NCBI GenBank assembly: GCA_008632985.1
Contig: QPGO01000080.1
Location: forward strand, 62,001-126,000
Reading direction: 5' to 3'
Source: Psammoneis japonica
Lineage: Eukaryota
Length of the DNA: 64,000 bases
Both the position numbers and the translations under genes were made by a program. Below the pieces are notes generated by a model. That model saw nothing but the letters and a program-made list of their open reading frames with translations, had not been told where the DNA came from and did no database searches. This document shows positions 3,270 through 58,010 of this stretch, piece after piece; within the stretch, counting starts at the first letter, position 1; each line of letters opens with the position of its first letter.

Positions 3270-6200
3270 CATCGTGCCCTTCAAGCCTTGCAAAGAGATC
3301 CCAACAACAGCCCAGCAGGTCTAAAAACGTGGGCTAAATGACCATTGCTTTCATGGACAGGTTTGAACATGAGGTTTGCTTGCCAGCTCCAAGCAAGCTG
3401 AACATTGAAGAATCGTTCAATGCTCTTGTGCAGCTCGACTCAGTGCATCGCTTCACACACACACTGGACACATCTCCTTGGCCACTCATGTGGCTCTCTC
3501 ATTGCCAGATCAATCAGCTGCAACACTGGCAGCACAGCACACTTCAAGATCAGAAAACTTAGAATCACTCCTGGAAAAGTGGGCTGCAATGCACAAGCTG
3601 TGCCATCTGCAACACAGCCCCCCCCAGTCACATGACACCCCCAGCCTCTGACACTTTCAACAATTCTGCCCCCCCCACACACACACACCCACCTTGTTCC
3701 TGTGGCAAAGTTTCTGCATCTCTAGAGTTCCCATCATGCTCAGATGGTCATTGTCAGACATTGCTTTGTAGAGCACAACTTGTGGTGTGTCCCAAGCCAG
3801 TCACAAGAATGAACAAAGGCGCTCCCTTTCTGATGTTGTCAGCACAATTTTGAAATTTGCAGAGAAAGACCCAGGCATCAGTCACCAAAGCAGAGCATCA
3901 CTTGGCTTGTGCAGATGAGCTCCAATGTTGTCCCAAAAAACTGGGTCATTGTCTCTGTGCTTTGCACCTCACTTGCCATCAAAAACCACAGCTGCCTCCT
4001 TGCCATGTTGTGTGCATCACCACCCACAAACTCTTTTGAGGAGCAGCAAGAGCTGAGCTCAGTTTGGTGCTAACAACAGTGTCCCCCAGCTGTTTGTTGC
4101 TTCTTGATGCCACATGTTGCCACTGTTGCCCCCAAAGTCTGAGCAGTCAAACACAAACTTAAGATGCCAAAGCCATTTCTCAAATGATGTGTGAGCTTGG
4201 ACACCATCATTTGCTTCATCCTGGCAATGTCCCCACTGCAAAAAAAGCACAAATGAGAGCAGCTCACCAACATCTCAGACTGAAAACAGTGTGCGCCTTG
4301 ACCCACCAGTGTTCAGAGCAGCCATTTGTTTGGAGTGCCATGTCTGGCACTCTCAGTCTCTTCAACCTCTCTTCCGCTGTCTCTGCACTTCAAGAAGCCC
4401 CTGCCTCTTGCTGAGCTGTGTGCCCTTTTGGGGCCACTGGCTTCTGGTGGGTGCTGCCAACACCTCTGCTGGGTCACCTCAGTGGCTCATGCAATGATTT
4501 GTGGCGGGTGGCAAAGAAAGGGAGCTGTGGTGTGTCATTCTAGCATGAGTTGCCAATTTCTGGGAGTGCTTGCTGATGTTCAGAAAAGTGCACACATGTG
4601 ACCAAATTTCTTGAGCAGCACATCACAGTTCTGGACATGCACCTCTTTGGAGATTGTGGCTGGACAAAGATGTGTGCTGGAATGGCAAAATGGGCAGAAT
4701 CCCATGTTGGCAGCAACTTTGATTGTGCTCTGTTGTCATGTCAGAGTCAATGCAGGACACAACCCAGATGTGCCCATTTCTGTGTTTGCTTTGCACTGAT
4801 GCCACAATGTTGCAAATGCAAAAAACAATTGGGTGCAACTCCAAAGCAGCATCACACAAATGCAATGCAGAAAAATGCACTGTGGATGAGGTGAACATTT
4901 CTGGGTCTTGCTCTTCCAGCACATGCACGTCAGCTGCTGTGGGTTGTCAAGAAAGCAAAGCAAATGTGATTGTGCAAAGCACGGATGTGCAAACTCATGT
5001 GACACCATTGGGATGGCACAGCAAAGTGGCTCATTTTCTCAATGACAATGACCCAGCGGCAATGGGAAAAAGGGCCATGAACAGTTGGGTGCATTGTGGC
5101 AGCACTTGTGGCTGATTTTTGTTTGGGGCACTTTTTTTGTCTTAAACAGCAGCAGTCTTTTTGAAAATGTGAACAAGCATGACAAGTGGGCAATGCAGTC
5201 TGTGGCATGTTAGAAAGTGCAAAAACATCATCATCTCAGCAGAATTTGGCTTGTAAAAAAAATGTCTGCTGTTTGAGCGCAGTGCTTGACTTTGAATGTG
5301 GACAAAAAAGGTTGTGTGCCAGGTCATCTGGATTTGTGCACAAAGTCATCCGTTTGGACAAAACATTGAAAATTTCAATGACAATTGCTTGGACTGACCC
5401 TGCTGGTGTGTCTCAAGTCAAGCCCTGTTGGACAAACTCCAAATGAAAGAAAGGCATGGGCGGATGTGCAACTGAGAGGTTTGCAGCAGGAGGCAGCTGA
5501 CAATGCCATCACATGTGAAAGGCAACTCAGCTTGCCTCATTGAATTGCTCACATCATTTTTTTTTAACCACAAACCCAAATTTCTGTGCACACATTTTAG
5601 GGCAAATCTGGTGTTTTGGGGGTGCCCGAAAGCATGCCTTTGACTGCAATCCACAAGCACACCCGAGGCTTTTCAACATGTGTTGTGCAGTGTGTTGATC
5701 AGTGCTCCTTTGTCACATGTGGAATTTTGCAAACCATCATTGTCCCACAGAGCATCACCTGGTGGGTCCCAGAGCTGGGGGGCATGTGTCAAAATCAAGC
5801 TTGTTGGACAGGCAGGCACTGTCCACAAAGGTCTTGTTCTCCTCAGTGCAGGGGCAGAGAACCTTTAGAGAACTTTGAGTGCAACAGTGTTGTGCACTGC
5901 TCTCCATCTCCTTCTCTGCATTTGTGACAGTTTTTTGTTTTTTCCATTGCCGAGCTTTTGAACAAGTTGTTTTGTTCTGCTGTCATCTTGACACTCTGAG
6001 CACTGCCACAACACAAGTCTCATAAAAGCAAAAAATGCTCACAAGCTCCCACTCTCAGCAGATTGACATGAGCGGCTTCCTGACAAATCTGGGCTTGGAC
6101 GTTGTTGTCCACAACTTTGTCAGCTGAAATCTTTGACAAAGGCAAAAGCTTTGTCCACACTGCTTGCTTCAAAAACATGACACAAAGTCAAGGGTGGGTG

Positions 6201-6675
6201 TGACACACTGGGGGCATGCAGGCAAACAAAAGTGGAAAAGAGCAAGCTCAGCAGACAAGCAGCAAGAAAGAAGCAGTTGTGGGCTGACATTTCTGTGGCA
6301 CTGTCATGAGAGATCTGAAAAATGGAAGGTCAGCTCCAGGTGCTGTGCACTTGTTGTGTGCAAAAGATCTGCCACACGGCCCAATTTTCATTTGGAAAAC
6401 AACAAACTCTCCTTCATTTGTTGTTCTTTCCAAAATCAAAGAGCAGTTGTGCACAAAACATTGCATTTTTCATGGGCACCTGCATTGTGATTTTGGAAAA
6501 ACCAAATTTGAAGGAGTTCAATGTGCTGAGAGCAACTCTTGGAAAACTCTGCAAGGAAAGTGGGGTGGTGTGCACACAACTTTTTTTTTTGGAGCTTGTG
6601 TTTGTTCTCTCCCTTGGCTTTGCTGACTTGTGACAAGCTTTGTTGAGTCTTGCCAAGATGAAATGCCAGTCAAAG
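3270..6675. mobile_element. Degenerate unclassified repeat/TE, left part, interrupted by the Gypsy insertion; strongly TpA- and CpG-depleted
   Basis: Abrupt shift to TG/CA-rich sequence with no credible ORF. It continues after the Gypsy element, which is flanked by an AAAG duplication. Borders are approximate. Confidence 0.6.
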
Positions 6676-7107
6676 TGCCCTGTGCATGTGCCAGGCGCTG
6701 AAAAAGAAGATGTGTTACGACTTTGTCGTTGTGAAAATTATGAGCTAGTTTAGAGTAGAGAAAGTGGGATCGTGCGAACAGGGAATCTTGCCAAATCCCC
6801 ATTCGTTCGCATTTGGATCGCATTAAATCGATCGTGCGTTCGCATTGTGGATCGTGCGAATCAAGCCATCACGCGCCATGCATGAGTGATGTCATCATGT
6901 GGAATCACGCTGCCATCGTGGGCCAGACGACGGGCTAGTGTGCTTCACACGGATGCTCTCTTAGCATCCTTCTGGATTTGCCTAAGACCTAGAGCCACGC
7001 CCTCCTGTGGTCGTGCTTCCCAGGCATGTGTCAACAACACTGCGTTGCCACGCACAAGAGGCTTGTGCACGGTCTCGCCGTGTTGTCCAGCAGCGAGGCA
7101 TGCTGCA
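6676..7107 (-). repeat. 3' LTR of Gypsy element 1
   Basis: Colinear with 11528-11959 without indels; about 21 differing sites by hand count, all transitions. Confidence 0.95.
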
Positions 7108-7129
7108 CACTCCCCCATGATCAGGGCCG

Positions 7130-10100
7130 TCAAGTGACAGGATGTCTTGCTGGTGACAGGGTGCAATCTGCCGTAGATTGTGCACATCCATCAGCACTCC
7201 GTTCTGGACACGCAACGTGCCGTTGTCATGTGCACGGACAACTCTGGCGGGTCCTGCATGGCTGTCAGAACCGCACTTAGAGGATTGTTCCTGTTTGACA
7301 AGTGCCAACTGCCCCACGGTGTGTTGATGCTCCTTGCGTTTCTGATTTTCACGCTTGTTGTTTAAGTGGGTGAGCTTCTGCTTTCTGGTTTCTATGCACT
7401 TCCACTTGGCACGATGGGCAACAGATGAAATCGCATCGCGTCCGAAGACCAATTGCACGGGGCTTGCACGCGTGGTCGTGTGCACCGCAGCTCTAGCAGC
7501 GAAGGCCACTGCCGGAGAGGATGCCACTCCATGGGTCATCTTCGTCCAGTTCCACATCCTGCACTGAAAAGGAGCGCACCATGTTGCCAAGTGTCTGGTG
7601 TGCACGTTCCACTGTGGCATTTGCCTGTGGATTCCGTTTGCTTGTGGGTTTCTTCAAAATCCCATGGTCATTTTAAATTCTGCCATAAATTCTGTCCCAC
7701 GGTCATAAACCACCTGGGTTGGCCACGGATGTCTGCACAGCCACGTTTGTTCTACGACGTTTGCTGCAATGTCTGCACGTTTCGCAGACACTTCTTTAAT
7801 CTCGAACCACCCGGTTGCTGGGTCAATCATTGTGACTGCCCACAATTGCAAGGTGTCCTTTCCGCGTCTTTGAATTTTATGTGGCCCCATCACATCTGTG
7901 CACAGAGTCTCCCATGGAATTGTCTCTGCGACCTTTTCTGGCAGCTTCCCATGATGCTGCATTCGGCGTTTTGTCTTCTGGCATCGATCGCACTTGACAC
8001 ACGTAGAATGCACCGTAGACCTCATGCTGGGCCAATGGAAGTGCTGGGCAATGGACATTTCTGCACGTGTCTCACCTGGATGACACAATGTCTCGTGGCG
8101 CCATTCAGCCAGCGGAACCTGCAATGACTGTGGCACTGCGATTTTGTCCTTATGACAGATTGACTGTCGTGATGACCCTCCCCCACGATGCGCGCGAATG
8201 GAGCAGTCGGACGAGTCCTCAGCTCTTGAGAGCAGGCGCTTGTCCTTTTGTTGTGCTTTTTGAATGCGCTTGAAGCTAACAGGCAGAGACAGCTCATCTT
8301 GAGCGTCTGCATCAAAGGCTTCATGCAAAGGACGACTCGATGGAGTGTCTTTTACATCCGGATTGGCCTCGGAAGGCAAGCTGGGTGCTGGTCGAAGGCG
8401 ACTGAGAGCGTCTGCGACCAGGTTGTGGGCACCCTCAACATGGCGTAATTCGGGACCGCATTCTTCGCATGTCAACCGCCAGCGCATGATGCGCTTGGCA
8501 TTGAATGCTTTGCACGTAAGATTTTTGTGATCAGCACACATGATCACACGATGACCAAGGAGAATCGTTCGAAATTCTTTCAACGTCTCCACAATGGCGA
8601 GCAATTCTCTCTCCGTTGTTGCGTGATTTAATTGCGCACTGTTGAGCTTTCTGCTGCAAAAGGCGACAGGTTTGTCATCTTGGGATGCAACTGCTCCCAA
8701 TTGACATTTAGAGGCATCGGCATGCACCTCAAAGGGTTTGTTAAAATCAGGATGTGATGACAAAACATCATCCGACATTGCCCGTTTAACGGTTTCGAAT
8801 GCCTCGTCTTCAACGGACGTCCACTCCCACTTAACAGTCTCGCTCACGAGTCATGTTGGCGGAGCCAAGACTTCAGAACGTCTGATCCACGTGTCGTGGC
8901 AGCAGTTCACCATGCCAACAAATGAACGCAGGTCACGTTTGTTGGTTGGGGTCGCGATTCGCTCAATGGCGTTGACTTCATTGGGCATTGGTCGCATTCC
9001 GTCTCTGTCAACCAGATGACCCAAGTGCTCTAACTGGGTTTGACAGAAGTGAGATTTAGTTGCGTTGACTTTTAGTCCTGCTTTCTGGACCCTCAACAAG
9101 ACTTCTTCAAGTTTGTTGAGGTGATCTTCACAGGTGCCTTTCATCACGACGAGAAGGTCATCTAAGTGCGTTCGAACGAACGACAGATCTTCAAATGAGC
9201 CTGACATGCGTTCTTGGAAAATGTCTGGCGAGTTGCATGATCCCATGGGCAACACCTGCATCTCACACTTGCCCCACGGGAAGATGAGCGTGCAGAGCTT
9301 CTTGCTGTCAGCATCCAATCGGATGTGACAACAGCCCATGTTTAAATCCAGCGATGCAGCCCACACAAAGCCTTCGAGCTTGAGCAGCACATCTTGGACA
9401 TGAGGAATCGGACAAGGCAATCGCTTGATCCGTTTATTCAGCTCTCTGAAATCATTAATAAAGCGCACCGTTAAATCTTTCTTCGGTGTGATAAATGATG
9501 GAGCTGCCCATTGGGATCGGTTAACGCGTTTGAGAACACCGACGCACTAGGCGTTCTACTTCTTTACGTAGCGTAGCTTCGTACGCACGAGGTACTTTAT
9601 ACGGACGAGCGTGGCATGGTTCTACACCCTCCTTGAGTTGGATATGGTAGGGTTCTCCCTTCCATTCTCCTAATGTCCCATCAAATAAGGACTCATGGCG
9701 TTTCAATAGTGCCAAAAGGTCGTTTTGTTGAACTATAGAAAGTTCTATTGCCTCTCGCGTTATGTCCCCGAGGCAGGCCGGCGCGTGCTTAGCGTCTAAA
9801 ATACGCGAAATCCGGTCGGTTTCCGAAGATAAGGCTTCTGGATCTTGAAGATAGAAGGAGGTTTCCACCGTAGCATCTACGTGCCTCATTGGTACTTCTC
9901 CATTGACTAATGGCCACTCTATCATCTGTTTAGAGAAGACAACATCAATGCCTTGTGTCTCCAGAATGTCACGTCCAATAATCATATCGTACTTGCCCAA
10001 CTTTCCGTTGTGTACGTGGACGGTATGCTTAAGTTCTGCAGTTTCGGATAATTCTGGTAACCAAAATTTAACGGTACAGTCGTTAGACGTACTAAACGAG

Positions 10101-10390
10101 CCTGCTACCGTAGTCCAGTTTGTCTCAGCCGTTGAATGGCTTCGCAGACGTTTACAGTATCGACTATCGAGTAGAGTACTGCTGGCGCCACTATCTAGTA
10201 GTGCCTTAATGGTTTGAGTCTTGCCCTTGCCATGTTTAGTATTCATAGCTATAAACAAGATTGGAGTAAGATGAGTCTTTTTAACTCGTTTACGGGATTG
10301 GCCTACAACACGTGTACGATGGTAATTCAGTTGTTCATTTATACATTCATCTAATGTATTAAAACTACCTGTATCGTGTCGGCCCTCTTC
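7130..10390 (-). pseudogene. pol: Gypsy pol (protease, reverse transcriptase, RNase H, integrase), broken by frameshifts, a stop and hypermutation
   Basis: Protease ALLDSGAS and YDMIIGRD. RT LDLNMG, LPMG and VRTHLDD. RNase H DAS, ERELLAIV, DHKNL and VADALSRL. Integrase H..LCHPG..C..C, D and DRGTEF. The 3' end is approximate. Confidence 0.92.
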
Positions 10391-11466
10391 TCAGGCGTCC
10401 GAATCTTCGGAATCACTTAAGTTGAGGTCGCGGAAGTGATTAAGCTCCTCCTCGCGGGCCTTACGCTTTTTCTGAGCGTTGGCAAAGTACTCCTCGACCT
10501 TCGATCCGATGAGAGCATTAACATCTTCCTCATTCCGAGGTTTTGTATTAGGCTTGCCGCTTCCGTTATTGGAATGTCCAGTCTTGACACGTTTCACGTG
10601 GTGCTTGAGCTGACGGCAATCTTCCGCATCATGTCCACAGTTAGTCCCGTGCAGCATGCACGACTTCTGGGTGTTCCGCTGGGTCGTGATCAACGACTCA
10701 GGATTGTCCATTCTACGTCCCGCTTACGTGGAACCTTAGCATGTTGGTCCTGGTTACCTTCGGCAAGCTCGACCTGCTCGATGCGCTCGCAGAACTGCAC
10801 AAATTCGGCGATGGCATGCGCCAACGGGTCAAAATTTTGTAGCGTCATGAACTTCTGCCATGCGTTCGGCACACCGCACTCGAACACATCGCATGGTTCG
10901 TCATTGGGTGATGGTGCCGGTGTTTCTCCATCCTCCGTCACGGGTGGAAACTGAGAGATGTGGCCGTTAATTTCAACAGCCCTCGCGACGCAGTCACGAG
11001 TGGAAACCTCTGCCGGCTTGCGCATGAAGCGCCGCAGATGACGCTTCTGCAATGGTGCCGCCCCATTTGGGAAGATGCTTTTCTTTAGCTTCGTGATGCA
11101 TGCTGCGTGCGCAGCGTTGGTTTGGGATGCCTGCTTGTCAGCAGCATTGTCAAATGACGTCAGAGCATCGCCCTGCAGTGAGTCACGCATGAGGGCAAAT
11201 TTCGCTGGCCCGGTCGTGATGTTTTGTCCTTCGTGCACGCGATCCACGTTGCGTAGAAAGATTGGGAGTGTCTCGCATGTAGCCGCAGAAAGGTGCGGGA
11301 TGCCCATCTCGTGCGTTGGACCATCCGGATCAGCAGGGTTGTTGCGCAACTTGAGCGTCTGGCACTCGCCCTGCTGCAGCTCTTTCTTCTCCGGCCGTGC
11401 GAACGGAGTCGGCGGCTTGGTCCGCTTCTTCATGGTCGTTTTGAGATTTGTCGGTCCTGCCAACAT
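10391..11466 (-). pseudogene. gag: Gypsy gag with a frameshift near 10700
   Basis: Sits directly after the 5' LTR. Contains QKRHLRRFMRKP and a C-terminal CMLHG..H..EDC knuckle-like motif. Confidence 0.75.
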
Positions 11467-11527
11467 TTTGTAGTTTCGTTTCTGTAGATTTCGTTACCTC
11501 GCACAATGTGCGGGAGCAATGTCACTG

Positions 11528-11959
11528 TGCCCCATGCATGCACTGGGCGCTGAAAAAGAAGATGTGTTGCGACTTTGTCGTTGTGAAAATTGTGAGCTAG
11601 TTTAGAGTGGAGAAAGTGGGATCGTGCGAACAGGGAATCTTGCCAAATCCCTGTTCGTTCGCATTTGGATCGCATTAAATCGATCGTGCGTTCGCATTGT
11701 GGATCGTGCGAATCAAGCCATCACGCGCCATGCACGAGTGATGTCATCGTGTGGAATCACGCTGCCATCATGGGCCAGACGACGGGCCAGTGTGCTTCAC
11801 ACGGATGCTCTCTTAGCATCCTTCTGGATTTGCCTGAGACCCAGAGCCACGCCCTCCTGTGGTCGTGCTTCCCAGGTGCGTGTTAACAGCGCTACGTTGC
11901 CACGTGCAAGAGGCTCATGCACGGTCTCGCCGTGTTGTCCAGCAGCGAGGCATGCTGCA
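11528..11959 (-). repeat. 5' LTR of Gypsy element 1
   Basis: 432-bp direct repeat of 6676-7107. Confidence 0.95.
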
Positions 11960-13375
11960 AAAGAGGCAGCTCTTAAAGTGTTGATGCCAGGTTTGCCTGG
12001 AAAGTGCTCCTCAATCTTTGCTTTCTGTTTTTGTGTCACTTTGGCACTCAAGATGCCTGCATTGCTGGTGTTGACACTTTCCCAGGGACACCACAACAAG
12101 CGCCAGCACATGCCAAAGCTGCCTGTCAAAGCTGCACAGGTGCAACAAGATTCCCAAGCAAACAACCATGAGTTGTCTTTGCAACAACTCTTTTTTCCCT
12201 GCAGCTGGATCAAGCAAAAATTTCTGACAGCTCACAAGGGAGCTCCTCTCCCAAATGTGAAAAAAGCAGCCCTGCAACACACTTTCCGTGCCCTTCAGTT
12301 GGCTTGTGTGTTCTGCCTCTTTGTGGTGCTCACTTTGTTTTTGCTGCAAAGAATGAGGGAGCACCACAAATCAGACAAAGAGCAAATTGTAGTTTCTCTC
12401 AAAGCTTTTCACCCAAGAATGAGAGAACACAGCAGGCTGAAAAATGACAGCCACATGCTTTGGCACCTGGGTGGCTTGCACGCCGCAACCAGGTCTGACC
12501 AACAAAGAGTTTTGCACTCTGGCTGACAAAGTCAACAACAGCTTTGTCTCTTTGCCCAGAGTGGTGCAACCAAGCAAACAACAAGCCACACTTGTTGCAC
12601 ACTTGCAGCAACCATGCTGGAGGGCAGGCCAAGGTGGCAAAATCAAGGTTCCACAAAAAAAAACAGCAAGAAGCGCTCCAGCTTCTTCTTGCCCAACTCA
12701 GCATGTCCAATGAGGCCAGCCAGCCATGTTTGTTGTCTGCTTGCATTGCATGGCAGCTGCACCAATGCCAGGAAACTGCAATCTCAAAATGGGTGAGCGG
12801 CAAGGCAGTCTTGCTGTTGGGAGCTCCAGCCAACAGCGCGCAATGCACACACAATTCAAGAGCCTGCAGCTGCACATGGGCGCTGACAACACATCTGCAC
12901 TCCACAAGCTGAGCATCTGTGAGTGATGATGCAACCCTCTGTCTGGCTCTCCCAAGTTGGCTTGGCACACTTTCTGTTGTGACAAAGAAAAACCTTTGCA
13001 CGCTGGGGCAACGTGCTCAAAACTTTTTTGTGCATTGACCAGAACAACAAATGCCAAAAAAGTTTAAAAGTGCAAGCTCTGGCAGGTGATGACAAAAACA
13101 TCCAGTGCTTGAATTTGTGCAGAAAAATGGTGTTCACTGGCCTGAAATGCTGTTTTGATTTTTTTCTTTGTGGCGATGGCTTGGCAGTCACCAGCAGAGC
13201 ACCAGCTCACAGCCAAAGTTGGCAACGCCAAGTTTTGTCTCTCTGTGTTGCTGAGGTGCTTGCCATGAAGCTCAAGATGCCAAGCACTGGTGGCTGTCAC
13301 CCACAAATGCAAAATTGGTTGCTGTGTGAGAGCACGAAGTGACACATGCTGTGTGCCGTGGATCTTGCACTCTTT
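11960..13375. mobile_element. Degenerate unclassified repeat/TE, right part of the sequence interrupted by Gypsy element 1
   Basis: Same TpA/CpG-depleted composition as 3270-6675. Normal TpA content resumes at about 13378. Confidence 0.6.
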
Positions 13376-13655
13376 GCTACAGCAGCTGGCCGCCATTGTT
13401 TACGACCGTTTCCATCGAAACCAAAAACCAAAATGCCATGCCAGCCGGTGTCACTCAAGCCTGAGATTTTACACCATGCATGTTCCAACATACGACTATG
13501 AAGAATAAATTTAAATTAGGGGCTTATTTCTTAACCCAATGGGAAGTCATTGTCGAAAGTCACAGAGAACACTAAATAATCGTGAGCCAGCTAAAATTCA
13601 TTTATTTTTTGGAGCAAATGCAGATTGTGCTCTCATTTCGTGCTGTCTGTTAACC

Positions 13656-16600
13656 ATGAGTCCGATCCAAGGTCTTTCCCTCCTGTTACTTTTTGCAGTC
13701 CGACCGCATGATGTCCTGGGGAGCGATTGTGAGAAACAATACGGCAAAGACATACGAGTGTGTGAAGAAAGTAGGAGAGATTCGGAGTGCACATTTTTCA
13801 TGAAGTTACGGGGTGAGAGCTGCAATCAGTTTTGTGAGAGACAAGGTGGGACATGCCTCTATGCTAATCCCAATAGTAGTGAGCCATGCAAAACTTATGG
13901 AACCAACGATTGTGATGCCGGCTTCTTCGACAACATCTGCACGTGCTCGATATACAGTAACCCTCCTCCGAGACCACCACGTCCATCGACGATTTGCACC
14001 AAGAAATTTAGTGATGATATTCTGATTTGTGACGAGCAAGATTCGCACTGTATTTTTTATGTTGAGTTGGGTGGCACAAGCTGCCGAGAGTATTGTCGCC
14101 GGCGAGGTGAATCATGTGCTAAAACAAGGATCAGCGACGGAGACTACACTTGCATGAATGTTGGAGAAACGGCCTGCGACGAAGTATTTGACAGAGCCAT
14201 TTGCGAGTGTTCGCTGGATGAGACTGATCTCACACCACGACCCACCAGTGAACCGACTCACCAACCGTCACCAGAACCTACTTCATTGCCATGCCGAGAA
14301 AAATACGGAAGAGATGTTCTTGTCTGCGACGAGAATGAATCTGAATGCACCTTTTATGTCGAACTACAAGGGGATAGCTGTGACGAATATTGCGAGGCGC
14401 GTGCAGGAACATGTTTGTCAGCTAAAGCAAATATGGGCGTGGAAAGAACGTGTACCAGCTACGGAACCAACGTCTGTGAGGCCAAGTTTTTTGACAACAT
14501 TTGTACATGTTCCATGGGTAGTGATCCGCCACCAAGACCTCCGACTATGCCGACACCGTGTAGCAACAAATTCGGGGAGGATGTACTCATATGTGACGAG
14601 CAGACTGAAGAGTGTATCTTTTATGCTGAATTGAGTGGCTTGAGCTGCCGAGAGTATTGTGGCCGGCGAGGTGAATCTTGTGTAAGGACAAGGATTAGCG
14701 ACGGCGAAAATACTTGTATGAATGTTGGCGAAACTTCTTGCGACGATATCTTTGACAGAGCAATTTGCCAGTGTACGCTACTGCAAAACAATCCGGTTCC
14801 TACATCACGGCCAAGCAAGGATCCAACGCGACAGCCCACTCGATTTCCAACGCCGAACCCATCCAAATCTCCGACACCACTTCCGACAAGACCCCCAACA
14901 CCGTTACCCACCGCCAATCCAACGCTATCGCCTACTAAAGCGCCAACTGTCCCACCAACAGAGACACCATCTCTGAAGCCATCGCCAAGACCAACATCGG
15001 GACCGACATCTATTCCTACAACAGCCCCAACTAAGTCATCAACTTTGCTACCAACAAGAGCTACGTCAGTACCAACAGCCAAGCCAAGTGCAGAGCCCAC
15101 TAAACCTCCAACAGCCAGCCCAACGGAGACTCCAACGCCGCCACCATCGCCTGATCTGACAAAGCGCCCTACTTCTTTTCCGACTTCTGCACCGACAAAG
15201 TCTCCCACCATCCAACCAACGGTTTCAGGACCAACAACTCCAGAATTCGATGATCGCCTATGTGGCAAATGTGATCGCAACGGATGCTTCTCTAGTGTCA
15301 ATCCCGAAAACGAACAAAAGTGCTTGAAATTTGATTGCTTCAACCGAATAGACTGTCCTGAATATGTTTCCACGTCTGATCCACCAAATGAGTGGGAAGA
15401 ACCTCCGCTAGATCCGTTACCCCCTGAACCCGGCGAGTTTGAGGAAAAGCGAAAAACTGGCCAGGTCTGTCTGATCAATGAACATTGTGAGTCAAACGTT
15501 TGTCGAAATTTTGCTTGCATGGCTTCTGCGGCGTGTTACCCAATCAAGCACAAAAAGGCATCTCCCTTTGACGCCAACAAGATAAACATTGTGTTTGTTG
15601 GCTCTGCCTTTAACAATCACGAAGCATTTCGATCGAAAGCTATTGAGGCATACAACAAAATGAAGGAGCACAAAATGTTTGCTGCGAGCAACGAGAATCT
15701 CAATGTGTTTCTTGTGGATCCTGTCGAGTTGGACCCTTCTTTTTGCGTGTTCAATTGCGCAGGGGTAGAGAGGTTGCTTTGCTGCAATGTCGTCAAGGCT
15801 CAAAAATTGTCGAGCCATTGTTTGCCCGAGGGAGCCAACTTGCAAACTATTGTGATACATAATGACTCGAAATACGGCGGCGGCGGATACACGAGCCAAA
15901 ACCTGGCAACCATGTCGACTCATCCATTGGGTTCTCAAGTGGTGATTCATGAATTAGGTCACTCGCTCTTTGAGCTCGGAGACGAATATTCGTACGGATC
16001 GGGAGCAAACAACGACCCCAACTGCGATGAAGCAGAAGACTGTTCAAAGTGGGCTGACTTGATTGATCGGACACCCCCAGGATATCCTCCGGTCAAGTGT
16101 ATACCTGGATGCCGCAACAACAACTTCTTTGTTTCGGGCGTCACGTACATGAATGTGCTGAATGAACAAGTGGGTGCCGTGAATGATCGCTTTACATGCT
16201 GTACCTATCAAGCTCTCACGAAAAGCATGCCACCCTATTGTCGGGCATTTGATTTTGAGAAAGACTACCTGCTAAACTATTGTTTGAGCAACGATTTCCA
16301 AAACTACGGGCGTTCAAACTACGGGAACAACCCGAAACTCCTAATTACAACTGGCATGGTCCGCAAAGACAAGTCCAAGTATGTTCATGTGTCGGATCCA
16401 ATGCTGGTGGACATTCAATTGAACTACAAAAGACGCGGCCGATTCGCTGTTGCAGATCCCGTCGTCGGTCCATCGGGATTGTACCGAAAAGAACGAGTCG
16501 TTGGCAACTTCAAAAGGCTTGCTCAAGCTGCTGCGGCGGGCTTTGAGAAGGCAGTTCAAGTCAAGGTGACGTATGCCACCAAGGGTAGAGAACGTTTCTT

Positions 16601-24721: not shown

Positions 24722-25564
24722 TTAAACAACGTCTTCAGAGGCTATAAACACGTCAGAAGAAGGAGTAAGCGGGCGATTGACAGGAGTTGGTCCACTGCCT
24801 CCTCGAGTTGGACCCGGCGTTGGTTCTGGCGTAGGTCCAGGCGTTGGTTCTGGGGTCGGTCCAGGCGTTGGTGCTGGAGTTGGGTCGACTGTAGGTCCAA
24901 GTGTCGGTTCTGGCGTAGGCAACGGAGTTGGTTCTGGAGTTGGTTCGATTGTAGGTCCAGGCGACGGTTCTGGCGTAGGGAACGGAGTTGGTTCTGGAGT
25001 TGGTTCGATTGTAGGTCCAGGCGACGGTTCTGGCGTAGGGAACGGAGTTGGTTCTGGAGTTGGTTCGATTGTAGGTCCAGGCGACGGTTCTGGCGTAGGT
25101 AACGGAGTTGGTTCTGGCGTAGGTCCAGGCGACGGTTCTGGCGTAGGTAACGGAGTTGGTTCTGGAGTTGGTTCGAGTAGGTCCAGGCGACGGTTCTGGC
25201 GTAGGTAACGGAGTTGGTTCTGGAGTTGGTTCTGGCGTAGGTCCAGGCGACGGTGCTGGAGTGGGCGCGGGGGTGGGGTTGGGAGTGGGGTTGGGAGTGG
25301 GCGACGGTGTTGGCGCGTCTGTCTTCTTTCCTTTTTTCCTTTTTTACCTTCCTGTAGAAATCTGTTCTTCTTCTTCTCGGATACGACCGGTTCTTGAACA
25401 TCGAAAGACGGCTCAATGATCAATTCGCCAAATGCGTTGTAGCTGACGACACTCCGTCCTCTCACCGAGTTGTAGGCATCGTACCCGTCGGAAGCCCATG
25501 CCGGGGCCTGAAGGAGTGATAGCACCAAAAGAGATTGCCAGGACGACAAGCACAAGAACTTCAT
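24722..25564 (-). CDS. Secreted Pro/Thr-rich repeat protein (PTPEPT/PSPGPT) with an RXL site and Lys-rich segment; cell-wall/EPS candidate
   Basis: Signal peptide [24 protein letters not shown], then [23 protein letters not shown] and ~60-bp tandem repeats. Two apparently compensating frameshifts at ~25340 and ~25175. Confidence 0.75.
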
Positions 25565-26545: not shown

Positions 26546-27247
26546 CTACTCATTCCACTGCTCGGAGCGACGATTCTCTTCACCGTTAGCGGTATACTTT
26601 GGCTCTGAGCGACGATTCCATTCACCGTCAGCGGTATGCATGATCGCCTCACTGACGACACCGATGTACGTATGATCAAAGTCATCACTTGCTTTGAACC
26701 CGTCGCTGTTTTCATCAAAGTCAGCACTTGCTTTGAACCCGTCGCTTTTTTCATCAAAGTCAGCACTTTGGTCGCTGCTGTCACTTTCGCGGCGACCTCG
26801 GTCGCTACTTGGATGTCGGGGACGTCCCGAAGATGGACTTGGACGAGAACGTGTAGGCGCACGAGTTGGTTCTGGTGTTGGTCCCGGCGTTGGTCCTGGC
26901 GTTGGTCCCGGCGTTGGTCCGGGTGTGGGTCCTGGCGTTGGTCCCGGCGTTGGTGCAGCTGTATCTTTCTTCCCTGCCTTTTTCCCGTTTTCCTTCTTCC
27001 CTTCCTTCTTCCCTGCCTTCTTGCCATTTTCTTGCATGCGCCTTTTCTCGTTATATTTTCTTGGAACTTCCCTGCTCGGTGGTAGCTCTTCTTCTTCGTC
27101 CTCAGTGTGTGTATCGACGATCAACTCTCCGAACGCATTGTAGTCAACGACGCCTTTCACCAGTTCTCGTCTCTCCTCAAAAGGTGACGCCTGCAGGAGT
27201 GGCAAGAGAAGAAGAGAGGCCAATTGAGAGCACCGCAAGAGCTTCAT
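26546..27247 (-). CDS. Tandem paralog: secreted protein with RRMQ, (GKKx)n, (PTPG)n and an acidic Ser/Asp tail
   Basis: Signal peptide MKLLRCSQLASLLLLPLLQA, then [35 protein letters not shown] repeats and SADFDE repeats. Confidence 0.8.
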   Translation of the reverse strand: MKLLRCSQLASLLLLPLLQASPFEERRELVKGVVDYNAFGELIVDTHTEDEEEELPPSREVPRKYNEKRRMQENGKKAGKKEGKKENGKKAGKKDTAAPTPGPTPGPTPGPTPGPTPGPTPGPTPEPTRAPTRSRPSPSSGRPRHPSSDRGRRESDSSDQSADFDEKSDGFKASADFDENSDGFKASDDFDHTYIGVVSEAIMHTADGEWNRRSEPKYTANGEENRRSEQWNE

Positions 27248-31920: not shown

Positions 31921-33060
31921 TTAAGATTTCAAGAGTTCTTTTGCCACTGCAGCTGTCACTTTGACATTGACGGCATTCCCAATGAGCTTGTATTGATGAT
32001 CAAGATCCATGGTTTCTGGGAATTGGAAATCGTTTGGAAAACACATTAGGTTGCAAATTTCCTTGGGTGAAAATCGACGAACTGGATGATTCTTGTAGTG
32101 CTCTACAAAATCGACATTGTCCCTTTCGTTCCAAATCTTGTCCATTGCAAGAAGGCTTCCGCTGGCTTCGTGGTAGAAACTTCCATAGGACCCTGTAAAG
32201 CAATGAGATATAGTGTCGGTCGGGAGTGCAAAGTGTAGACAGTGTCGAGCAAACGGTTTCTCAAAGACAGCGCTAGGAACTTGAAAGCTAGACACATTTT
32301 GGTCAGATTCCAAAAACTCAGACAATTGTAGTATTGTACTTGGTGGTTGTTTGGAGGAGGATTCCTTCCACAACGCGGTACCGTCGAGCAATAGTTGTAA
32401 TGTTTCGTTCATGTTTTCGTTTCGTGTATTCTGCTCGATAGGCCAACGATTGGATCTTTCACAAATCATGTAGTAACGTGTTCTGTGGTTGGGAATACCA
32501 AACATGGTAGGGCTCAACATGTATTCTTGCCATGTGTAGCCATTGTCGCGAAGCGATTCCTTCCATGCTTCCAACATGCGACTCGATGCAAATCCCTTGA
32601 CATTTTCCAATAGTATCCATTTCGGTCGATGCTTTGGAAGCAAATGGTTTGAAATGTGCTTGAATCCTGCACACCGGTTGTCGTCGATATCGAGATGCTT
32701 CGAATTTGGCTTTTTTGTGAATGGCTGACACGGCGGACTCATGGTCCACAGGTCTGCTGCATCTGGTACCGAATGTAACTGTTCAATTAACTTTGTCGTG
32801 ACTGAAGATCTTACTTTTTCTGAATCATGATTTAAACGATAAACCTCGTTGCAATGCAAGGAAATTTCGTATGCGTGACATTCTTCGACGCGACCAACAG
32901 CTTGCTCGACTCCATAACGCATCCCACCAATGCCACTAAAGAATTCAATCATTTGTAAACTCACAGCAATTTCCATGAGAAAAAAGAATAACATGGGGAT
33001 CAAAAGTGTCGGCATCCTTACAAAGTCACTACTAGAGGAATGAGCGGGGAATATGAACAT
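31921..33060 (-). CDS. DNMT2: DNMT2/TRDMT1-type C5-cytosine (tRNA) methyltransferase
   Basis: Motif I EFFSGIGG, IV SPPCQPF, VI LENVKGF, VIII PNHRTRYY, the DNMT2-type CFT motif (CFTGSYG), IX RRFSPKEI and X LIGNAVNV. Possible starts at 33060, 33015 and 32952. Confidence 0.9.
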   Translation of the reverse strand: MFIFPAHSSSSDFVRMPTLLIPMLFFFLMEIAVSLQMIEFFSGIGGMRYGVEQAVGRVEECHAYEISLHCNEVYRLNHDSEKVRSSVTTKLIEQLHSVPDAADLWTMSPPCQPFTKKPNSKHLDIDDNRCAGFKHISNHLLPKHRPKWILLENVKGFASSRMLEAWKESLRDNGYTWQEYMLSPTMFGIPNHRTRYYMICERSNRWPIEQNTRNENMNETLQLLLDGTALWKESSSKQPPSTILQLSEFLESDQNVSSFQVPSAVFEKPFARHCLHFALPTDTISHCFTGSYGSFYHEASGSLLAMDKIWNERDNVDFVEHYKNHPVRRFSPKEICNLMCFPNDFQFPETMDLDHQYKLIGNAVNVKVTAAVAKELLKS

Positions 33061-33129
33061 GAACTGTGATGGCAGTTCAAAATAGAAGGATCATCTCTCG
33101 TCTCTCCGCTCCGAACATCATCAGAATGC

Positions 33130-36100
33130 GATCATTGATGACTGCGACGTACGACAGACGACAATCTGGAATCGATCACATGTATGTCAATCACATGCCG
33201 CAATGAACAACGCGACGCATGTGTGCGATCCGCCACCATTGTGACCATTGTCTCACATGCGACTGCCAAGACAGCAGATGGTGTGACAACACAACTGCAA
33301 CGCCCGCCCAGCGATGACATTTGGCGGTTCCAGCGGTTTCACTGCTTGAGCTGAATCTCCCTCTCTGTCATTTCCTCACAATTTGGTGGTGTGACAGACC
33401 TTTTTCACGTCTTTGTCTTGTTGCCACATCACTTGCAGGGAGCTTTGGGAAAGCCAGCAGCACCACAATGTCTCTGGCCACAATGTGCAGCTGCACCCTT
33501 TGCATCCTCCCATTGCAGCTGGCTCCAGCACAGAAAGCCAACTCGACAATGCACGCCCTTCCTTGCTGCAGTCATTTCATCCCATGTGGCACACAGACAC
33601 GCCAGCCAGTTGTGGGCTTCATGTGCGCTTGTGACAGAAATGTTTTTGAGGCCCAGGTGCAAGACCCTTTGGGTGTTTAGACAAATCTGCCTTTTTGTTC
33701 GTGCAGTCTGCTCCAGGATGCAACTGCACGTTCTTTGCGGAGCGCCCCTCAGACTGCAAAAGAGAGCATTTGCACTCTTGCTCAATCTCACTGTTGCAAA
33801 TTGCCACCTGCTGCAAGTGTGTTTGGGAGAGAACCACCCAGCATGTTGGTGTTGTTCTGCCACCCCCCAATTTTGTCTGCCACAGAGAACAAACTCTTGC
33901 CACCACACTGGCAGCCAAGGGAACTTGTCAGCAGCAATGGCACAGGCTCAAAAGCACCAGCAGCAGAATTCAACACAACTGTGGTGAAAACACTCAGAAA
34001 CACACCTGCAGAGCTTGAAATGTGGTCATTGGTTGTCTCTTGCTTGTGTTCCTTACAATGGACCCAGCTGTGGCAGCTGCCATTGGCCATGTTGAGTGCT
34101 GGCAAGAGTCTGTGCAAAGTTGGGGCCCTGCACACTGCTCTCATCATCTGCTGCTTCAGGCTGCAACAAAAGGTGGTGAGATCTGTGGCCCAATCTCTGG
34201 GAGGAAAGGTCCCTCAGTCCATGCCAAAATTGCCAGCCAGACTGTTCATGCACAACACTCATGGCAGAGACCTGCCTTCTTTTGAGCTTGGACAAATGCA
34301 AAGTGGCTTGGGAGAGTTTCTTAATTTCTTTTCATCTTGCAATCTGTGAAATTGACCACTGTGGCACAATCATTCCCCTGGCAACCAACCACTCAAGTGG
34401 CCCACAGCATCTGAAGTCAGCAAGCAACAAGGAGCAGCTGCATTGTCACAGCCTGTGGCTGGACAACTTCTTGGTTGAGAGCACATTTTGGAGACTGGTG
34501 TTGCTGCTTTCTGCTTCAAACTCAAAGTGTGAATTTTTTCCATGCAAGTCCGAGCCTCCTTTTTTTTTGTGTTTTCTTGTCCCCTGTGAGCTCGTGTTTG
34601 AGAAGACCAGGACAAAGAGTTTCTTTTGTCTGCCAGTTCACAGGGCACAAAGTGGAAGCAGCAGAGTGTCTGTTGCACCAACAAGACATGGGCAATGTGA
34701 CCACATTTGCCAACCTCCTCTGTGGATCTCATGTGCAGCACACAGAGCATGAATTTTGTTCCATGAGGTGCAGAGCATGCCATTGTTGGTCTGTTGTTCT
34801 CTCTCTAGATTGCAGGAGGTGCTCCCAGCTGCAGCCCATTTGCAAAGAAACTTGAGCAGTGCTGTTGGAAATGCATGCTGCCACTCTTGAAATTGCTTTG
34901 GGCTGTTTGGTCATTGATCATTGGTGCTGTCTGGGTGCAGCGGGGTCACATCATTTTCATTGTCACTTTGGCAAAATTGATTGGTTGATCTTCAAGTGGT
35001 TGTTGCACCATGCATGACAAAATTGCACACATTGAGTGCAAGAAGAAATTTGCTCATTCTTTGCTCAAGGGAATGTCAAACAGTTGCAAGCATGCAATGA
35101 CAGGATGAAGCTGACATGCACTTGTCCCACCTTTGCCAGAGAGCACAGCATTGAGGTGCTGTTGCACATTGAAAATTGTCTCAGGAAAGCAGCTTGCCAG
35201 CTGCAATGCACCACTGGACTGGACTGGACTGGACTGGACTGGACTGGACTGGACTGGACTGGACTGGAGCTATTTGGCCATTTTGAGGATGTTGACAACA
35301 TTGAAGGAAAATGGTTGAACACACCCCAGGCAAGGAACAAGGGCCCCACACCTGAGCACTTTGATGAGGCCATGCAATTGTTTTGTTTGCATCATGTGAA
35401 GCCTGCCACAAAGCTCAAGATGCCACAAAACTTGTTTGTCTCCCCAATTGGTGCAAAAGCCTTGTTCAGTTGAAACTGCAGTGCATGTTGTGTGCTGTCC
35501 ATTTGGCTGGCACCACCCATTCTTTCTGAGCAAGAAATGAATCTCACATTTGAGTGGGCAAGCCACTTGTTGTGGATGCCATTGTGGACCTTCTCAAGCC
35601 TCTTTGGGAATGAGGAAGCACTGACTGATGGCAACAAGAGTGACCAAAAATGGAGCAATAGCATCGGCAGTGGTGGCAGCAATGGAAACACAGCAGCCAT
35701 TGCAAGCATGATGGTGGCAGCAGCTGAGGTGGAAAATGCAAGCAGTCCAGTCCCAACAATCTTTGTCTCCAGCACCACAGCACTTGGGCTCTGCTTTTGC
35801 AAGGCGCCAACATGCTGCAGTGACCCAAGGGAGCTGGGCCTTCCAAATCGCAGCAGCGGCAGACAAGAGTGCTGGAGCTCTGCAGCCAAGGTGGCTGTGG
35901 GAATATGGCAGATGCAGAGGCCAAGGATGTGGTGGAGGCAAGGATGCCTTGGCAGCCATGGCGGCGGCAAAGGAGGCACTGCCGTCACAGCCCTGGTCAT
36001 GGAGAATTAAAGAACAATTCATGGCACCAGCCAAGGTGGTGGCAACCAAGGCAGGAGTGGCCTGTGCACTGCTGCAATGATCAAACCTGCCAAGCCCAGG

Positions 36101-36780
36101 ATGTGAGCTGCAGTTGCCAAGAAGCTTTTGGATGGAGCAGCACTACTCATGGCGGCAACCAAAGCAACCAGGCTCGAGAAGCACCTTGTGAGGGCAGCTC
36201 ACATGCCTCAAAATTCAGCTGGACAAGGCCCTCCAAATGAAGGAGGTGCCCAATGGACAGCGCCCTTGGTGCGGTTGATAATTTAGAGCTGATGGCTCCA
36301 GAGCTGAGTGCCCCCAGCTGTCGTGCTGTGTGTTGACCCCTGCCCAACCTCCTGTGCTGTGTTGTGCTGTGCTGTGCTGAAAAAACTTGTGGTGAGCAAC
36401 GAACAAAACAGCAAAGAAAATTTGCACTGCAAACCTGCCACCAACCCATTGTTTGACATTGAAAACAATGCTTCAGATTGTGTGAATGACAAGGAGGACA
36501 TGTGTTTGACCAAGATTCGCTCCATTTTGATGCTCCTTTCTAAAAGATGGGGCCTCAAATGGCCGGTGGGGCGTGTGATCCAGGACAACAAGAGAGCCAC
36601 ACTGTGAATCGCATGCCTTGATTGACTCCAAGGACTCATCAAAAGGAGCTGTGCAATCTGTCAATGAAGAAGGAACTCATTCCTTCCAAACAGCAGCAGG
36701 AGTGTTCCACTCAGGATGATGGGTGATGCTCAGAAACGACCTCCGCTCCGGAACGCTGGGGAGTGCTTTGCTCCCTAATT
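33130..36780 (+). mobile_element. Degenerate TpA/CpG-depleted retroelement remnant with a gag-like segment and a possible LTR end plus PBS near 33320
   Basis: ...GATGACA followed by TTTGGCGGTTCCAGC (PBS-like). Gag-like CPTF..IEVLLHIE..TTG..ELFGHFE..KW at 35036-35473. Composition matches the other repeats. Confidence 0.5.
35213..35267. repeat. (ACTGG)11 microsatellite inside the gag-like remnant
   Basis: Perfect pentamer array, read directly. Confidence 0.95.
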
Positions 36781-48873: not shown

Positions 48874-49119
48874 ATCGTCTTAATTCTCCTTATTCGATGA
48901 CAACACTTTTCACGCTAACACCAAGTGCTAAAACGATACCTTCCTATGAATACACTCAGTGTGCGAGTTTCTTTACGATGTTGTAGGAGGAAATCGAACG
49001 AGCTCGGATTCGAGTTTTTCTGGTCGGGTCGACATGCGGTGTGTGTGGGATCTAAAGAAGGATGTCGTATGTTGCGAGAAGCGAACCCATCTCCAAGTGA
49101 GCGCAGAGTTCGTCAACCG

Positions 49120-52100
49120 AAACATCGGATCCCCGACTCAAGGAACGCGGTTCGCGGCACGACCGACTGAGATGAAACATTTGACAGCCTGGCAGAAGCT
49201 CTTGAGAGATGCCTTGTCATGGAGACCCACAAGAAGCAAAACCTTTTTGACACATGCACCCCCATTGTTGCTTGGAGCACTGCCCATTTGCTCCTTGCAC
49301 CAAGTCTCATTTTGAGCTGGCAAGCTGCGGACATTCTCCCATGCAGGGGCACCCACTTGCCCCTCATGGCTTCCGGTCTGGTGCAGAAGGTCCCAAATGT
49401 TCTTTCCGGCAAGCAATCACTGCCTCATCAACCATGCCAAGTGCTTTCTCAACAGGTGACAACAGCTCTGGTCCCACAGTTGTGGGTTTGTTGTGACCAA
49501 GGCGGAGTCACCTTGGTGTGCTGATCAATTTTTTTTGCTGTTTTCTCACCAAGCCCCTGGCTTGAGAGCTCTTCCAGAGCAGCAGCAGGCGGAAGGTCCA
49601 AGGTCAGCAGATCATTGGAAATGTTGCAGCTGGGCAAAGATGCAGGAGCAATTTGCAAATCTTGTGCCAATTGTGTGAGAGCTCTCCAGTTTGTGATTTT
49701 GTGGCTGATCATTGAAGGACGAGACATCTCCGCTGTGTCTGTCTTTCTGCCATCAGAGTTGTCAAAATTCAAAACTTTCATGCCACTTTGATCCCATGGT
49801 TGTTGAGCTAATTGCTTTGAGGCAGATGCAGGCCTGTCAATGGTGGGTGGATTGTTGGGGAGATGTCATCCCATGTGAAGCACTGGTTTCTGGCAGGTTG
49901 AGCTGATTGCTTTGAGGCAGATGCAGAAATGTCAATGGTGGGTGGGTGGGTGGGTGGGGAAATGTCATCCCCATGTGAATCACTGGTTTCTGGCAGAGAT
50001 GTGCATGGAATGATGGCTTTTTTGTGGCACTCACCATCTTTGCCTCTCAGACAGCTCTTCCAATTGTGTTCAGCACAGTTGTGCAAAGAGCAGCTGTTGA
50101 AAATGTGGTTTGCTGCTTGCTGGAAGATCATCTCCAGATCTCCAGCAGCAGTTGATCTTGTTTTGCTAGACAAACATTCCTGCTGGACAAGACATCTGGC
50201 AAGTGGTCTGCAGCAGGCAGCCAAGGCATGTGCCGTGCAAGTCTCTGGGGGGCTGGCACAGCAGAGACCATCATTTCTTTTGTCTCACACAAATGGAGTC
50301 CCATCAGCTGGACCCACGTTTGCTGTTGCTCAATTTGCCCCCTCAGAAGTCAGCAACATTGTCTTGCATGTCAGCTTGAAGAAAAAAGTGCAACATGTTT
50401 GGCAACTGCAGGGTGTGCCGCTGCTTGCAATGACATTTCTTGATTGCAAATTGCCCTCCAGCCATCAACAACTCAGCACATTCATCCACATTGAAATGCA
50501 ACTGCTGTGAAAACACTTGTTGAGCTGATGGACAAGTTTGAAGCTCAGCACAGAAGCCAAGATGGATGAGCCAGCAAAATTTCACCAACCCACTTGCACC
50601 CTTCTCTGGACAAAACTGCTGTTGTCTCTTTTTGTGGCTGTCAATGAAAGTGATGGCATCAGAAGCATTTGCCACTTTAGATTCTCTCCCATTTTGCTCC
50701 AAGAGCTTGTGGAAGTTGTCACAAAGTGCAAGACTTTTGAGGGAGAGAACCCCAATTGCATGCTGGGCTCAAGCCTTGATGTTGATGGGACCTGGCAAAC
50801 TCATGCTTGCTAATCATCCAAAATGGAAGCAAATGACAATGAACAAGAAGATGCTGGACAAGTTAATTTTGGGAGGAGGACCTGTGCAACTCCAAGGCTT
50901 TCCTTTTCTAGAAGAAGTCAGCAGTCATTGCACTCCAAAACACATTCTTGTGCCCAGCTGTGTCCCAATTGTGCCCCAAAATCTGGGTTTCTCTTTGGCA
51001 CATTTCTGCGCAACATGTTGCAGACTTGTGTCCTTGTTTGAGGCATGTGCAGAGCAAATGTGATTGGTCACAAGGATTTTTGCATGTGCAATTCTAAAAG
51101 AAAACAATCAGGAGCTTGTTGCCAATGAACTTGGAGTTCTCCTGGACACAAGGATGAGACACATTTGGTCAATTGTTGTTTCATGCACACCTGTCTTTTC
51201 CCATGTTTCTTGTCATGACTCTTTCCTCTGGCATGCATGTCCCTTGCAACAGGGCTTTTTCCTTGGACAATCAATTTCATGTTGGGACACAAAAATCTTG
51301 ATGCTTTTTTCAACAGCTTTGTCTGTGCCTTTTTGATTTAATGGCCTGTTGCAGGCTGGATGGTGCATCACAATGACAAAAATGAGCAAGATCACTTGAA
51401 ACAACCATTTTGGCAAAGGGGTCCATTGCACACAAGTCAGGAGCCTGTGCACAACCTCAATCAGTGGAGTTGTCTCTCCTTGCATTGAAAGCAAATGCTT
51501 GATTTGTGAAATGTTTCATTTCAAACAGCGCTCCACAGATGATGAAGCCAAAAATCCATTGAAGTTGTGTGAGACATTCATTCAGGCAATCACATGCCAC
51601 TGAATCAGCAAGGTTCCCAAGACAATGAAATGAAGTTTCATCACTCCAATTCTCTTGGGTGCCTTGGTGCCAAACAAAGCCCCCAAGAATCCTGATTTGA
51701 AGCACTCCAAGTGGTTGCATTCAAGGCACCCCAATGCTTCTTCCCAAAGCCTGGGCAGAAATCACATGGTGTGTTTTGCTTCCTCCCACGGCCACCTTGT
51801 GCAATTCAAAGTCCTGAGTGAAAGTTGGCTTGGCAGCCAATGCATGAGAAAACATGAATTCATGCCCAAAGGAATTGCCACAGTTTGCACCCCAATTGAC
51901 AGCTCTTTGTTTAAAGTGCTGCATTTGGGGTTAGAGAAAGGGCAACTTGCCTGTGCCAGGGGTGTTTTGAGGTTGTCAACAAACCTGCCATGACACAATT
52001 CCGTCATTGATTTGGTTTCAAGAGCTGCTTGATCCATCAGAACACATTGTTGACTTTCCACTGCATCTTGGATGCAATCATGCAGCAACTCCTCCTTTGA

Positions 52101-57855: not shown

Positions 57856-58010
57856 TTTTTGATTTATGGTATTAGGCCTCTGTTGAATAATGGTCTTCAG
57901 TGCGCAGGGTCGGTCATTGCCTACACAGTACCTGGAGTGAGTCAGTCGAGTGGAGGTGGTGGTGGAAAAGACACAACGGCATTCTGCTTCGATCGAGGGT
58001 ACAGGAAGTG

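Follow-up and report, generated by a model that had tools for sequence, protein, structure and literature searches.

What decides which TpA dinucleotides survive in DNA from which that dinucleotide has been erased? The question is raised by a 64,000-nt stretch of the diatom Psammoneis japonica (contig QPGO01000080.1, positions 62,001 to 126,000 of the forward strand), which we call the window. Two-state segmentation of TA density alone, in which the flanking bases were not used, calls five TA-poor blocks in it (3336-9434, 10756-13377, 33184-36775, 49069-55904 and 58315-61718); together these hold 143 TA in 22,553 nt, against 1,784 in the remaining 41,447 nt, and inside them, where TpA is lost, TG and CA are elevated. 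The converted blocks form two classes, "young" ones with CpG intact (56/kb) and "old" ones in which CpG has been lost too (9/kb). The young converted DNA consists of two Ty3/gypsy elements, both on the minus strand; taken together, the low-TA blocks comprise these two elements and decayed DNA, and the host open reading frames (ORFs) with Pfam matches sit in TA-normal DNA. We find that the base on either side of a TpA site influences how long it persists.

Flanking bases of the surviving TpA sites

An earlier note on this DNA had seen by eye that the few TpA left at positions 3270-13375 are mostly YTAR (Y, pyrimidine; R, purine), and counting bears this out. All the motifs it quoted are present (ACTTAGAA at 3557, TCTAGAG at 3721, GCTAAC at 4069, CTTAAG at 4158 and TTTAGG at 5596), and 42 of the 68 survivors are YTAR, the others being RTAR (17) and YTAY (9), with no RTAY. 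Its added statement that GTA is nearly absent is overstated: GTA makes up 14 of the 68 survivors (GTAG 11, GTAA 3), many of them as CGTA.

The excess of YTAR at 3270-13375 is large against both baselines in the window, the unconverted parts of the two transposable elements (TEs; 50/219, 23%; p = 6e-9) and non-ORF DNA (106/582, 18%; p = 2e-13). Over the whole window YTAR accounts for 84/143 survivors (59%; p = 6e-12 vs unconverted TE) and RTAY for 3/143, and the excess is found in both age classes, in the young blocks (43/85) as in the old (41/58). The YTAR share is likewise 23% across 84 foreign gypsy loci, and no locus of 108 exceeds 33%. In ORF DNA it is scarcer (134/980, 13.7%), presumably due to stop-codon avoidance; since genes are poor in YTAR, the TE baseline is the fair comparison. 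As a control, nine other dinucleotides in the blocks carry Y..R flanks in only 15-27% of cases, with no shift in flanks. These counts confirm that the YTAR bias among surviving TA is real. The block edges are graded: beyond the cut at 61718, five of the next six TA are YTAR.

TpA is palindromic, so each site offers two adenines. We therefore modelled survival as exp(-k(top +1) - k(bottom +1)), so that each strand takes hits on its own and the rate depends on the base 3' of the A. Uniform loss across NTAN contexts, the outcome that the earlier note had named as refuting its proposal, is rejected (deviance 185 on 9 degrees of freedom, df), while two rates bring the deviance to 22.6 on 8 df and four rates to 8.3 on 6 df. 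The four rates are T 2.39, C 1.74, G 0.53 and A 0.13 with the window baseline; with the 84-locus baseline they are T 2.45 (2.09-3.10), C 1.68 (1.43-2.03), G 0.78 (0.63-0.97) and A 0.58 (0.44-0.72), intervals that assume a fixed baseline and independent sites, which two copies of a long terminal repeat (LTR) are not. The ratio of Y to R rates is thus about 3-7 (7 with the window baseline, 3 with the TE baseline). Because an A before C or T is changed 3-7 times faster, YTAR persists longest and RTAY goes first. The proposal that the target is 5'-TAY-3' on either strand, and that YTAR is spared because it lacks TAY on both, is thus supported by the strand model and by the paired copies described below, but not as a strict rule: the preference is graded, and YTAR is lost too.

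Direction and level of the change

Survival alone cannot separate an A followed by Y from an R at -2; the direction of change can. Five repeat-copy pairs were compared, inverted-repeat arms as short ungapped stretches, a global alignment of the arms being uninformative. YTAY went to TG at eight sites and to CA at one, and RTAR to CA at five and to TG at two; across the pairs the direction is as predicted at 13/16 sites (p = 0.02; Fisher 0.035), several of which overlap as TATA. The LTR pair of element 2 contributes much of the detail, and here the earlier note had read the letters well: YTAY went to TG at 4/4 sites, RTAR to CA at five and to TG at one with one unchanged, one GTAC became GCGC (59215-59218), and the exceptions TTAA>TTGA and GTAA>GTGA are present. 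The codon junctions of element 1 agree: there T|A changed to T|G in 10/11 cases where Y came next and in 1/4 where R did (p = 0.03). Not one of 25 conserved Tyr is left in the converted pol (11 His, 9 Cys, 1 Arg, 4 other), so that element 1 is dead; for element 2 there was no homologue near enough for a codon comparison.

The change is almost purely one of transitions at TpA. All 33 differences in the element-2 LTR pair are transitions and none is a transversion; 23/25 TA were changed there and 3/20 CG. The two LTRs of element 1, 93% identical to each other, differ by 28 transitions and 2 transversions. Comparison with run X1 gives transitions at 454/470 change places and transversions at 16/470; X1, like a second run, X2, is made up of contigs from a single sample that may be the very source of the window, so neither counts as independent support. 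Strong depletion is limited to TAN trinucleotides, that is, to A with T at -1, and AAA, AAC and AAG stand at 0.98-1.17 of baseline in the old blocks. The few A>G changes outside TpA, which the earlier note had placed at GAT and AAT, are indeed found there in the element-2 pair (GAT/ATC 3/18, AAT/ATT 1/24), with one further, ambiguous case at CAC/GTG; the off-target changes at GAT and AAT also have T at +1. TA>CG doubles are rare: the GTAC>GCGC above and a Tyr>Arg codon CGC (8098-8101), both in RTAY, make 2 of about 44 events, a rate not clearly above the background of CA>CG. We also observed that GCGC is the best-retained CpG context in the old blocks (0.70).

One effect at +2 is confined to element 1 (6670-9434 and 10756-11960), where G stands at +2 in 15/22 of the TAY that survive (TACG/TATG; p = 0.003; simulated factor 0.16, likelihood-ratio test statistic, LRT, 24). 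Most His exceptions among its pyrimidine-preceded Tyr codons have G at +2 as well (pooled direction data, p = 0.03). No such effect is seen in element 2 (factor 0.97), the old blocks, or two contigs from another assembly, L130 and L117, described below (LRT <= 1). We did not adopt a general +2 G rule, which would be post hoc and limited to element 1; protection by methylated CpG is possibly what element 1 records.

At what level does the change occur? TG and CA outcomes are interleaved within one LTR. The two LTRs of element 2 differ, the right one being largely spared, and the element-2 tract spans an inverted-repeat arm, an LTR and part of pol and ends inside the element. No strand bias was found: coding-strand ratios of YTAY to RTAR survivors show no difference from baseline in four converted elements (p 0.09-1.0). 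Interleaved strands, a spared sister LTR and tracts that cross borders, with no strand bias found, together place the change in chromosomal DNA after insertion. Nor does having a homologue suffice. In element 1, most of 9435-10755 escaped conversion, yet the family is no less abundant over that segment (depth summed over X1 contigs, which is not copy number, is 12,000-14,800 there vs 65 in the flanks), and single-copy flanks are also converted. Conversion thus acts in positional tracts and does not simply depend on a homologue; it is DNA-level, strikes both strands, makes transitions only, is limited to tracts and runs faster than CpG decay.

Features of the window bearing on TpA conversion (positions are those of the window)
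Position	Strand	Feature	Remarks
3336-6668		Old converted block, single-copy; TA and CG both depleted	Depth 65-85; one ORF scanned, without Pfam match
6669-7107	-	Element 1 (Ty3/gypsy) LTR, left on the + strand	TA erased, CpG mostly kept
7108-9434	-	Element 1 converted pol	Reverse transcriptase (RT), RNase H, integrase
9435-10755	-	Element 1 largely unconverted island, protease region; internal control	TA 68/kb; depth 12,000-14,800
10756-11959	-	Element 1 converted gag region and second LTR	LTR at 11521-11959
11960-13377		Old converted block, single-copy	Ends ~140 nt ahead of 1088-aa host ORF
33184-36775		Old converted block	TA 3.3/kb, CG 12.5/kb
49069-55904		Old converted block	TA 4.4/kb, CG 9.4/kb
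58315-61718		Young converted tract: one arm of small inverted-repeat element, left LTR (58909-59310), element 2 RNase H/integrase	CpG intact
61719-63905	-	Element 2 (gypsy) unconverted part, including right LTR copy (63552-63953)	LTR copy taken as near-ancestral reference

Several further observations belong to this map. The small element has short inverted repeats (58005-58163, 58560-58912 and 63924-63978), of which the left arms are TA-normal and the right arms lie in converted DNA, and a further converted tract seems to start near 63905. A single-copy contig of X1 reads CA for the window's TG at 4222-4223 and TG for its CA at 5945-5946; at each place one ancestral CG or TA has been converted independently in two haplotypes or lines, and such independent outcomes make the decay recent. 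None of the 34 ORFs from the converted blocks and element 2 has a Pfam match. A DNMT2-like gene (31921-33090, minus strand), which lies ~100 nt from a converted block and appears intact and unconverted, was considered as the mutator and rejected, its homologues being named as tRNA C38 methyltransferase; homologues from Cylindrotheca, Nitzschia and Amphora, some 40-42% identical to it, suggest that the host is probably a pennate diatom. Tandem repeats with a 12-nt period lie within ORFs at 24745-25325 and 26817-26977, in TA-normal DNA.

The same bias in other contigs, and Tyr loss in proteins

We surveyed 109 related gypsy loci, 77 from metagenomes, 4 from IMG/VR and 28 in prokaryotic metagenome-assembled genomes (MAGs). 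One of them, L086 (G001:C23; 52% pol identity), a contig that looks eukaryotic within a bacterial bin, has the TpA-erased, YTAR-rich pattern (YTAR 132/358), and 108/109 do not; short low-TA stretches occur in L054, L088 and L099. Locus searches favour intact copies, so one in 109 is a minimum estimate. In a set of 36 small contigs from the same bin, the pattern is found in L130, a copia element that has repeats in common with the L086 contig (YTAR 62/115, RTAY 3), in L117 (YTAR 154/421, with a baseline of 23%) and in L158 (YTAR 17/32). L150 (G001:C30) was set aside as a case: its TA observed/expected ratio is 0.34, it carries tandem repeats, and YTAR at 57/265 is no excess, so that its TA loss is of another kind. 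The bin itself, bacterial MAG G001, holds many small, repeat-rich, eukaryote-looking contigs (gypsy, copia and tandem arrays; L113, L117-L119, L127-L158). These are bin contamination, and three of them carry the pattern. The order of C and T rates, which differs from that in the window, hints that the host of L086 and L130 is another species.

Retroelement proteins in JGI/ENA records (P0108, P0256, P0341 and P0273) likewise have conserved Tyr replaced by Cys or His. In P0108, one of 120 gypsy matches, this holds for 9/13 conserved Tyr, and in P0256, one of two Tyr-poor proteins among 150 copia matches, for 10/14.

Known systems and candidate mechanisms

Fungi disable transposons within the chromosome by repeat-induced point mutation (RIP), whose heritable, dinucleotide-specific transitions make TpA from CpA and hit both paired copies. 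The window resembles RIP in the heritable, dinucleotide-specific transition mutagenesis of transposons and differs from it in that TpA is lost while TG and CA are gained, and in that the right LTR of element 2 and the high-copy segment 9435-10755 are spared. RID of the fungal system has been linked to diatom DNMT4 (PMC9998398). A closer likeness is the TpA hypermutation of integrated virophage DNA and DNA of nucleocytoplasmic large DNA viruses in the alga Bigelowiella natans (Mettrop et al., bioRxiv 10.64898/2026.01.13.699255). In both, A:T>G:C transitions are restricted to TpA, leave TpG or CpA depending on the strand, and are regional, falling on foreign or mobile DNA. In B. natans the TpA-poor coding sequences are enriched for RT and DDE domains, the de novo rate is about 1000-fold over background and on in some lines only, and an ADAT2 candidate is present (bioRxiv 10.64898/2026.01.13.699255). 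The two cases differ in that the host of the one is rhizarian and the process was measured de novo, whereas the window is from a diatom, a fossil record near saturation; the process in the window matches that of B. natans.

What agent might be responsible? We lean, without great confidence, towards a DNA adenine deaminase of TadA/ADAT type acting on silent chromatin. A host process would rewrite A:T to G:C at TpA, in place, across kilobase tracts of silent, transposon-rich chromatin; the base hit would be the A, deaminated to hypoxanthine by a TadA/ADAT2-type enzyme with a strict need for T at -1 and a preference for a pyrimidine at +1. The silent state of the chromatin, not the pairing of repeat copies, would recruit or expose it, and replication would then fix the hypoxanthine as G. 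The outcome would be retroelements stripped of function, with all conserved Tyr codons destroyed, and because that function is destroyed the process would work as genome defence.

Enzymes of this family offer a partial precedent. ADATs require U at -1 (PMC11156358), and of the TadA-derived adenine base editors ABE3.1 prefers YAC and ABE8e-YA prefers YAY over YAR (PMC12528748), so that ABE8e-YA and the window are alike in A>G on DNA, a pyrimidine at -1 and YAY over YAR; the same order of rates (T and C above G and A) is seen in the window and in L130. The editors differ in being engineered and Cas9-guided, in acting on single-stranded DNA of an R-loop and in accepting C at -1, whereas the window shows an almost strict need for T at -1 and the work of a natural agent. 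Fungal editing by Tad2-Tad3-Ame1 shares the U/T at -1 (PMC11156358). The edits of that system and of animal ADAR, however, are made in RNA, are not inherited, and go with a purine at +1 (in ADAR a slight preference for G), whereas the window shows the reverse (PMC11156358); the contrast with ADAR that the earlier note had drawn is therefore well founded, and extends to fungal ADAT.

A number of results weigh against this explanation. What the earlier note called an enzyme footprint stands as a flank preference, from which we infer an enzyme; a scan of 18 + 34 ORFs of the window turned up no deaminase gene (HxE/PCxxC). In base-pair terms A>G at TAY and T>C at RTA are one and the same event, so the counts fit either, and for the four old blocks the baselines are proxies for the ancestral sequence. 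A composition test of direction shows no significant difference when the young blocks are pooled and compared with all normal DNA (381/313 vs 1649/1480, p = 0.31), and reaches significance only against unconverted TE (p = 0.008 and 0.04); in all four old blocks it is significant but confounded by CpG decay. Tyr codons preceded by a pyrimidine give Cys:His of 6:5 in element 1 and 1:3 in L130, with 5:2 in L086. The strand model fits L130 (C 1.95, T 1.13, A 0.29, G 0.14; deviance 21 on 6 df) and L117 (C 0.91, G 0.45, T 0.41, A 0.02; deviance 34 on 6 df) imperfectly, and in L117 the TAT rate is no higher than that of TAG. A model of single-stranded DNA in R-loops might predict a strand bias, and none was found. 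Natural mRNA editing by fungal Tad2/3 prefers a purine at +1, contrary to TAY (PMC11156358).

Error-prone repair is an unlikely rival. T:G mismatches from deamination of 5-methylcytosine would recruit mismatch repair and a Pol eta-like polymerase that places G opposite template T at TA, and the flank rule would be that polymerase's error spectrum; both strands and tracts are thereby explained, and the converted blocks overlap regions of CpG decay. In diatoms DNMT5a methylates TEs at CG (PMC9998398), and Pol eta recruited by mismatch repair mutates A at WA motifs, the signature with nc-AID showing A>G at TA in clustered, both-strand tracts as in the window (PMC4686820). The signature of Pol eta, however, is A>C/G at TA and AA (PMC4686820), and the window has neither the AA sites nor the A>C transversions, AA being spared and transversions few in both comparisons. 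In the element-2 LTR pair the supposed trigger, change at CG, is also far rarer than its product at TA.

We judge it comparably improbable that the thymine is the target. An analogue is the loss of CTAG in E. coli, which is caused by Vsr: here an unknown T modification, a glycosylase of T:G/T:I type or very-short-patch repair at 5'-RTA would turn T into C in silent chromatin. Every count fits this equally, T>C at RTA and A>G at TAY being equivalent, and the TA>CG doubles are easiest to obtain with replication-independent fixation. Over-repair, however, needs existing mismatches, so that its rate is bounded by polymerase errors, and no other class of substitution accumulates comparably; the doubles, moreover, are only those two. 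We know of no enzyme that converts T to C.

Editing of RNA or cDNA by an ADAR- or ADAT-type enzyme, carried in by retrotransposition, with mosaics made by recombination of edited and unedited copies, is very improbable. The converted young blocks are retroelements of a high-copy, diverse family, and U at -1 is common to RNA editors, as this would have it. Against it stand the interleaving of TG and CA in one LTR, the lack of strand bias, the difference between the two LTRs of one element, tracts that cross element borders into single-copy flanks and one inverted-repeat arm, a +1 preference opposite to that of ADAR and fungal Tad2/3, and, in B. natans, the same TpA change gained de novo in a silent single-copy region. 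That the YTAR excess is an artefact of baseline or composition (stop-codon avoidance, AT-rich runs or selection) with no real +1 preference is scarcely credible: YTAR-poor ORF DNA does inflate the contrast with genes, Y:R falls from 7 to 3 with the TE baseline and some direction tests are weak, but the excess stands against unconverted TE, non-ORF DNA and the 84 foreign gypsy loci, the control dinucleotides are flat, and both age classes show the excess, as do L130, L117 and L158. The remaining probability we assign to mechanisms outside those named.

Meaning of the flank rule

As far as searched, TpA-erasing hypermutation is apparently in print for only one rhizarian alga, there without a shown enzyme or a context beyond the dinucleotide; the main text of the B. 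natans preprint gives no +1 flank rule and makes no mention of diatoms. No report of TpA depletion or RIP-like adenine mutation in diatoms was found in the literature searched, whose coverage leaves out most subscription papers. New here are the fitted strand model, three partly independent tests of direction, which partly disagree, and the same bias in contigs from a separate assembly.

The flank rule, TAY changed 3-7 times as fast as TAR, is a signature for assaying candidate enzymes and for screening genomes, and at the protein level screens may look for Tyr to Cys/His, Thr to Ala and Ile to Val. It argues against preferences like those of Pol eta, ADAR and fungal Tad2/3 and resembles TadA on DNA, and it bears on the dating and annotation of diatom transposons. 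The broader proposal, that in diatoms, and more widely in algae of the stramenopile-alveolate-rhizarian group, a naturally occurring DNA adenine deaminase of the TadA/ADAT family serves as a RIP-like defence guided by chromatin, with a T-A-Y footprint on either strand, falls a little short of what we would call probable; we are just as tentative about the lineage tuning that is part of it (TAT over TAC in the window, TAC over TAT in L130 and L117). Such an enzyme might be damped by G at +2 or by methylated CpG. If true, it would mean a naturally evolved adenine editor of double-stranded DNA regions, a chemistry so far known mainly from protein engineering; and if a deaminase is responsible, genome defence would gain a new branch and adenine editors a natural source.

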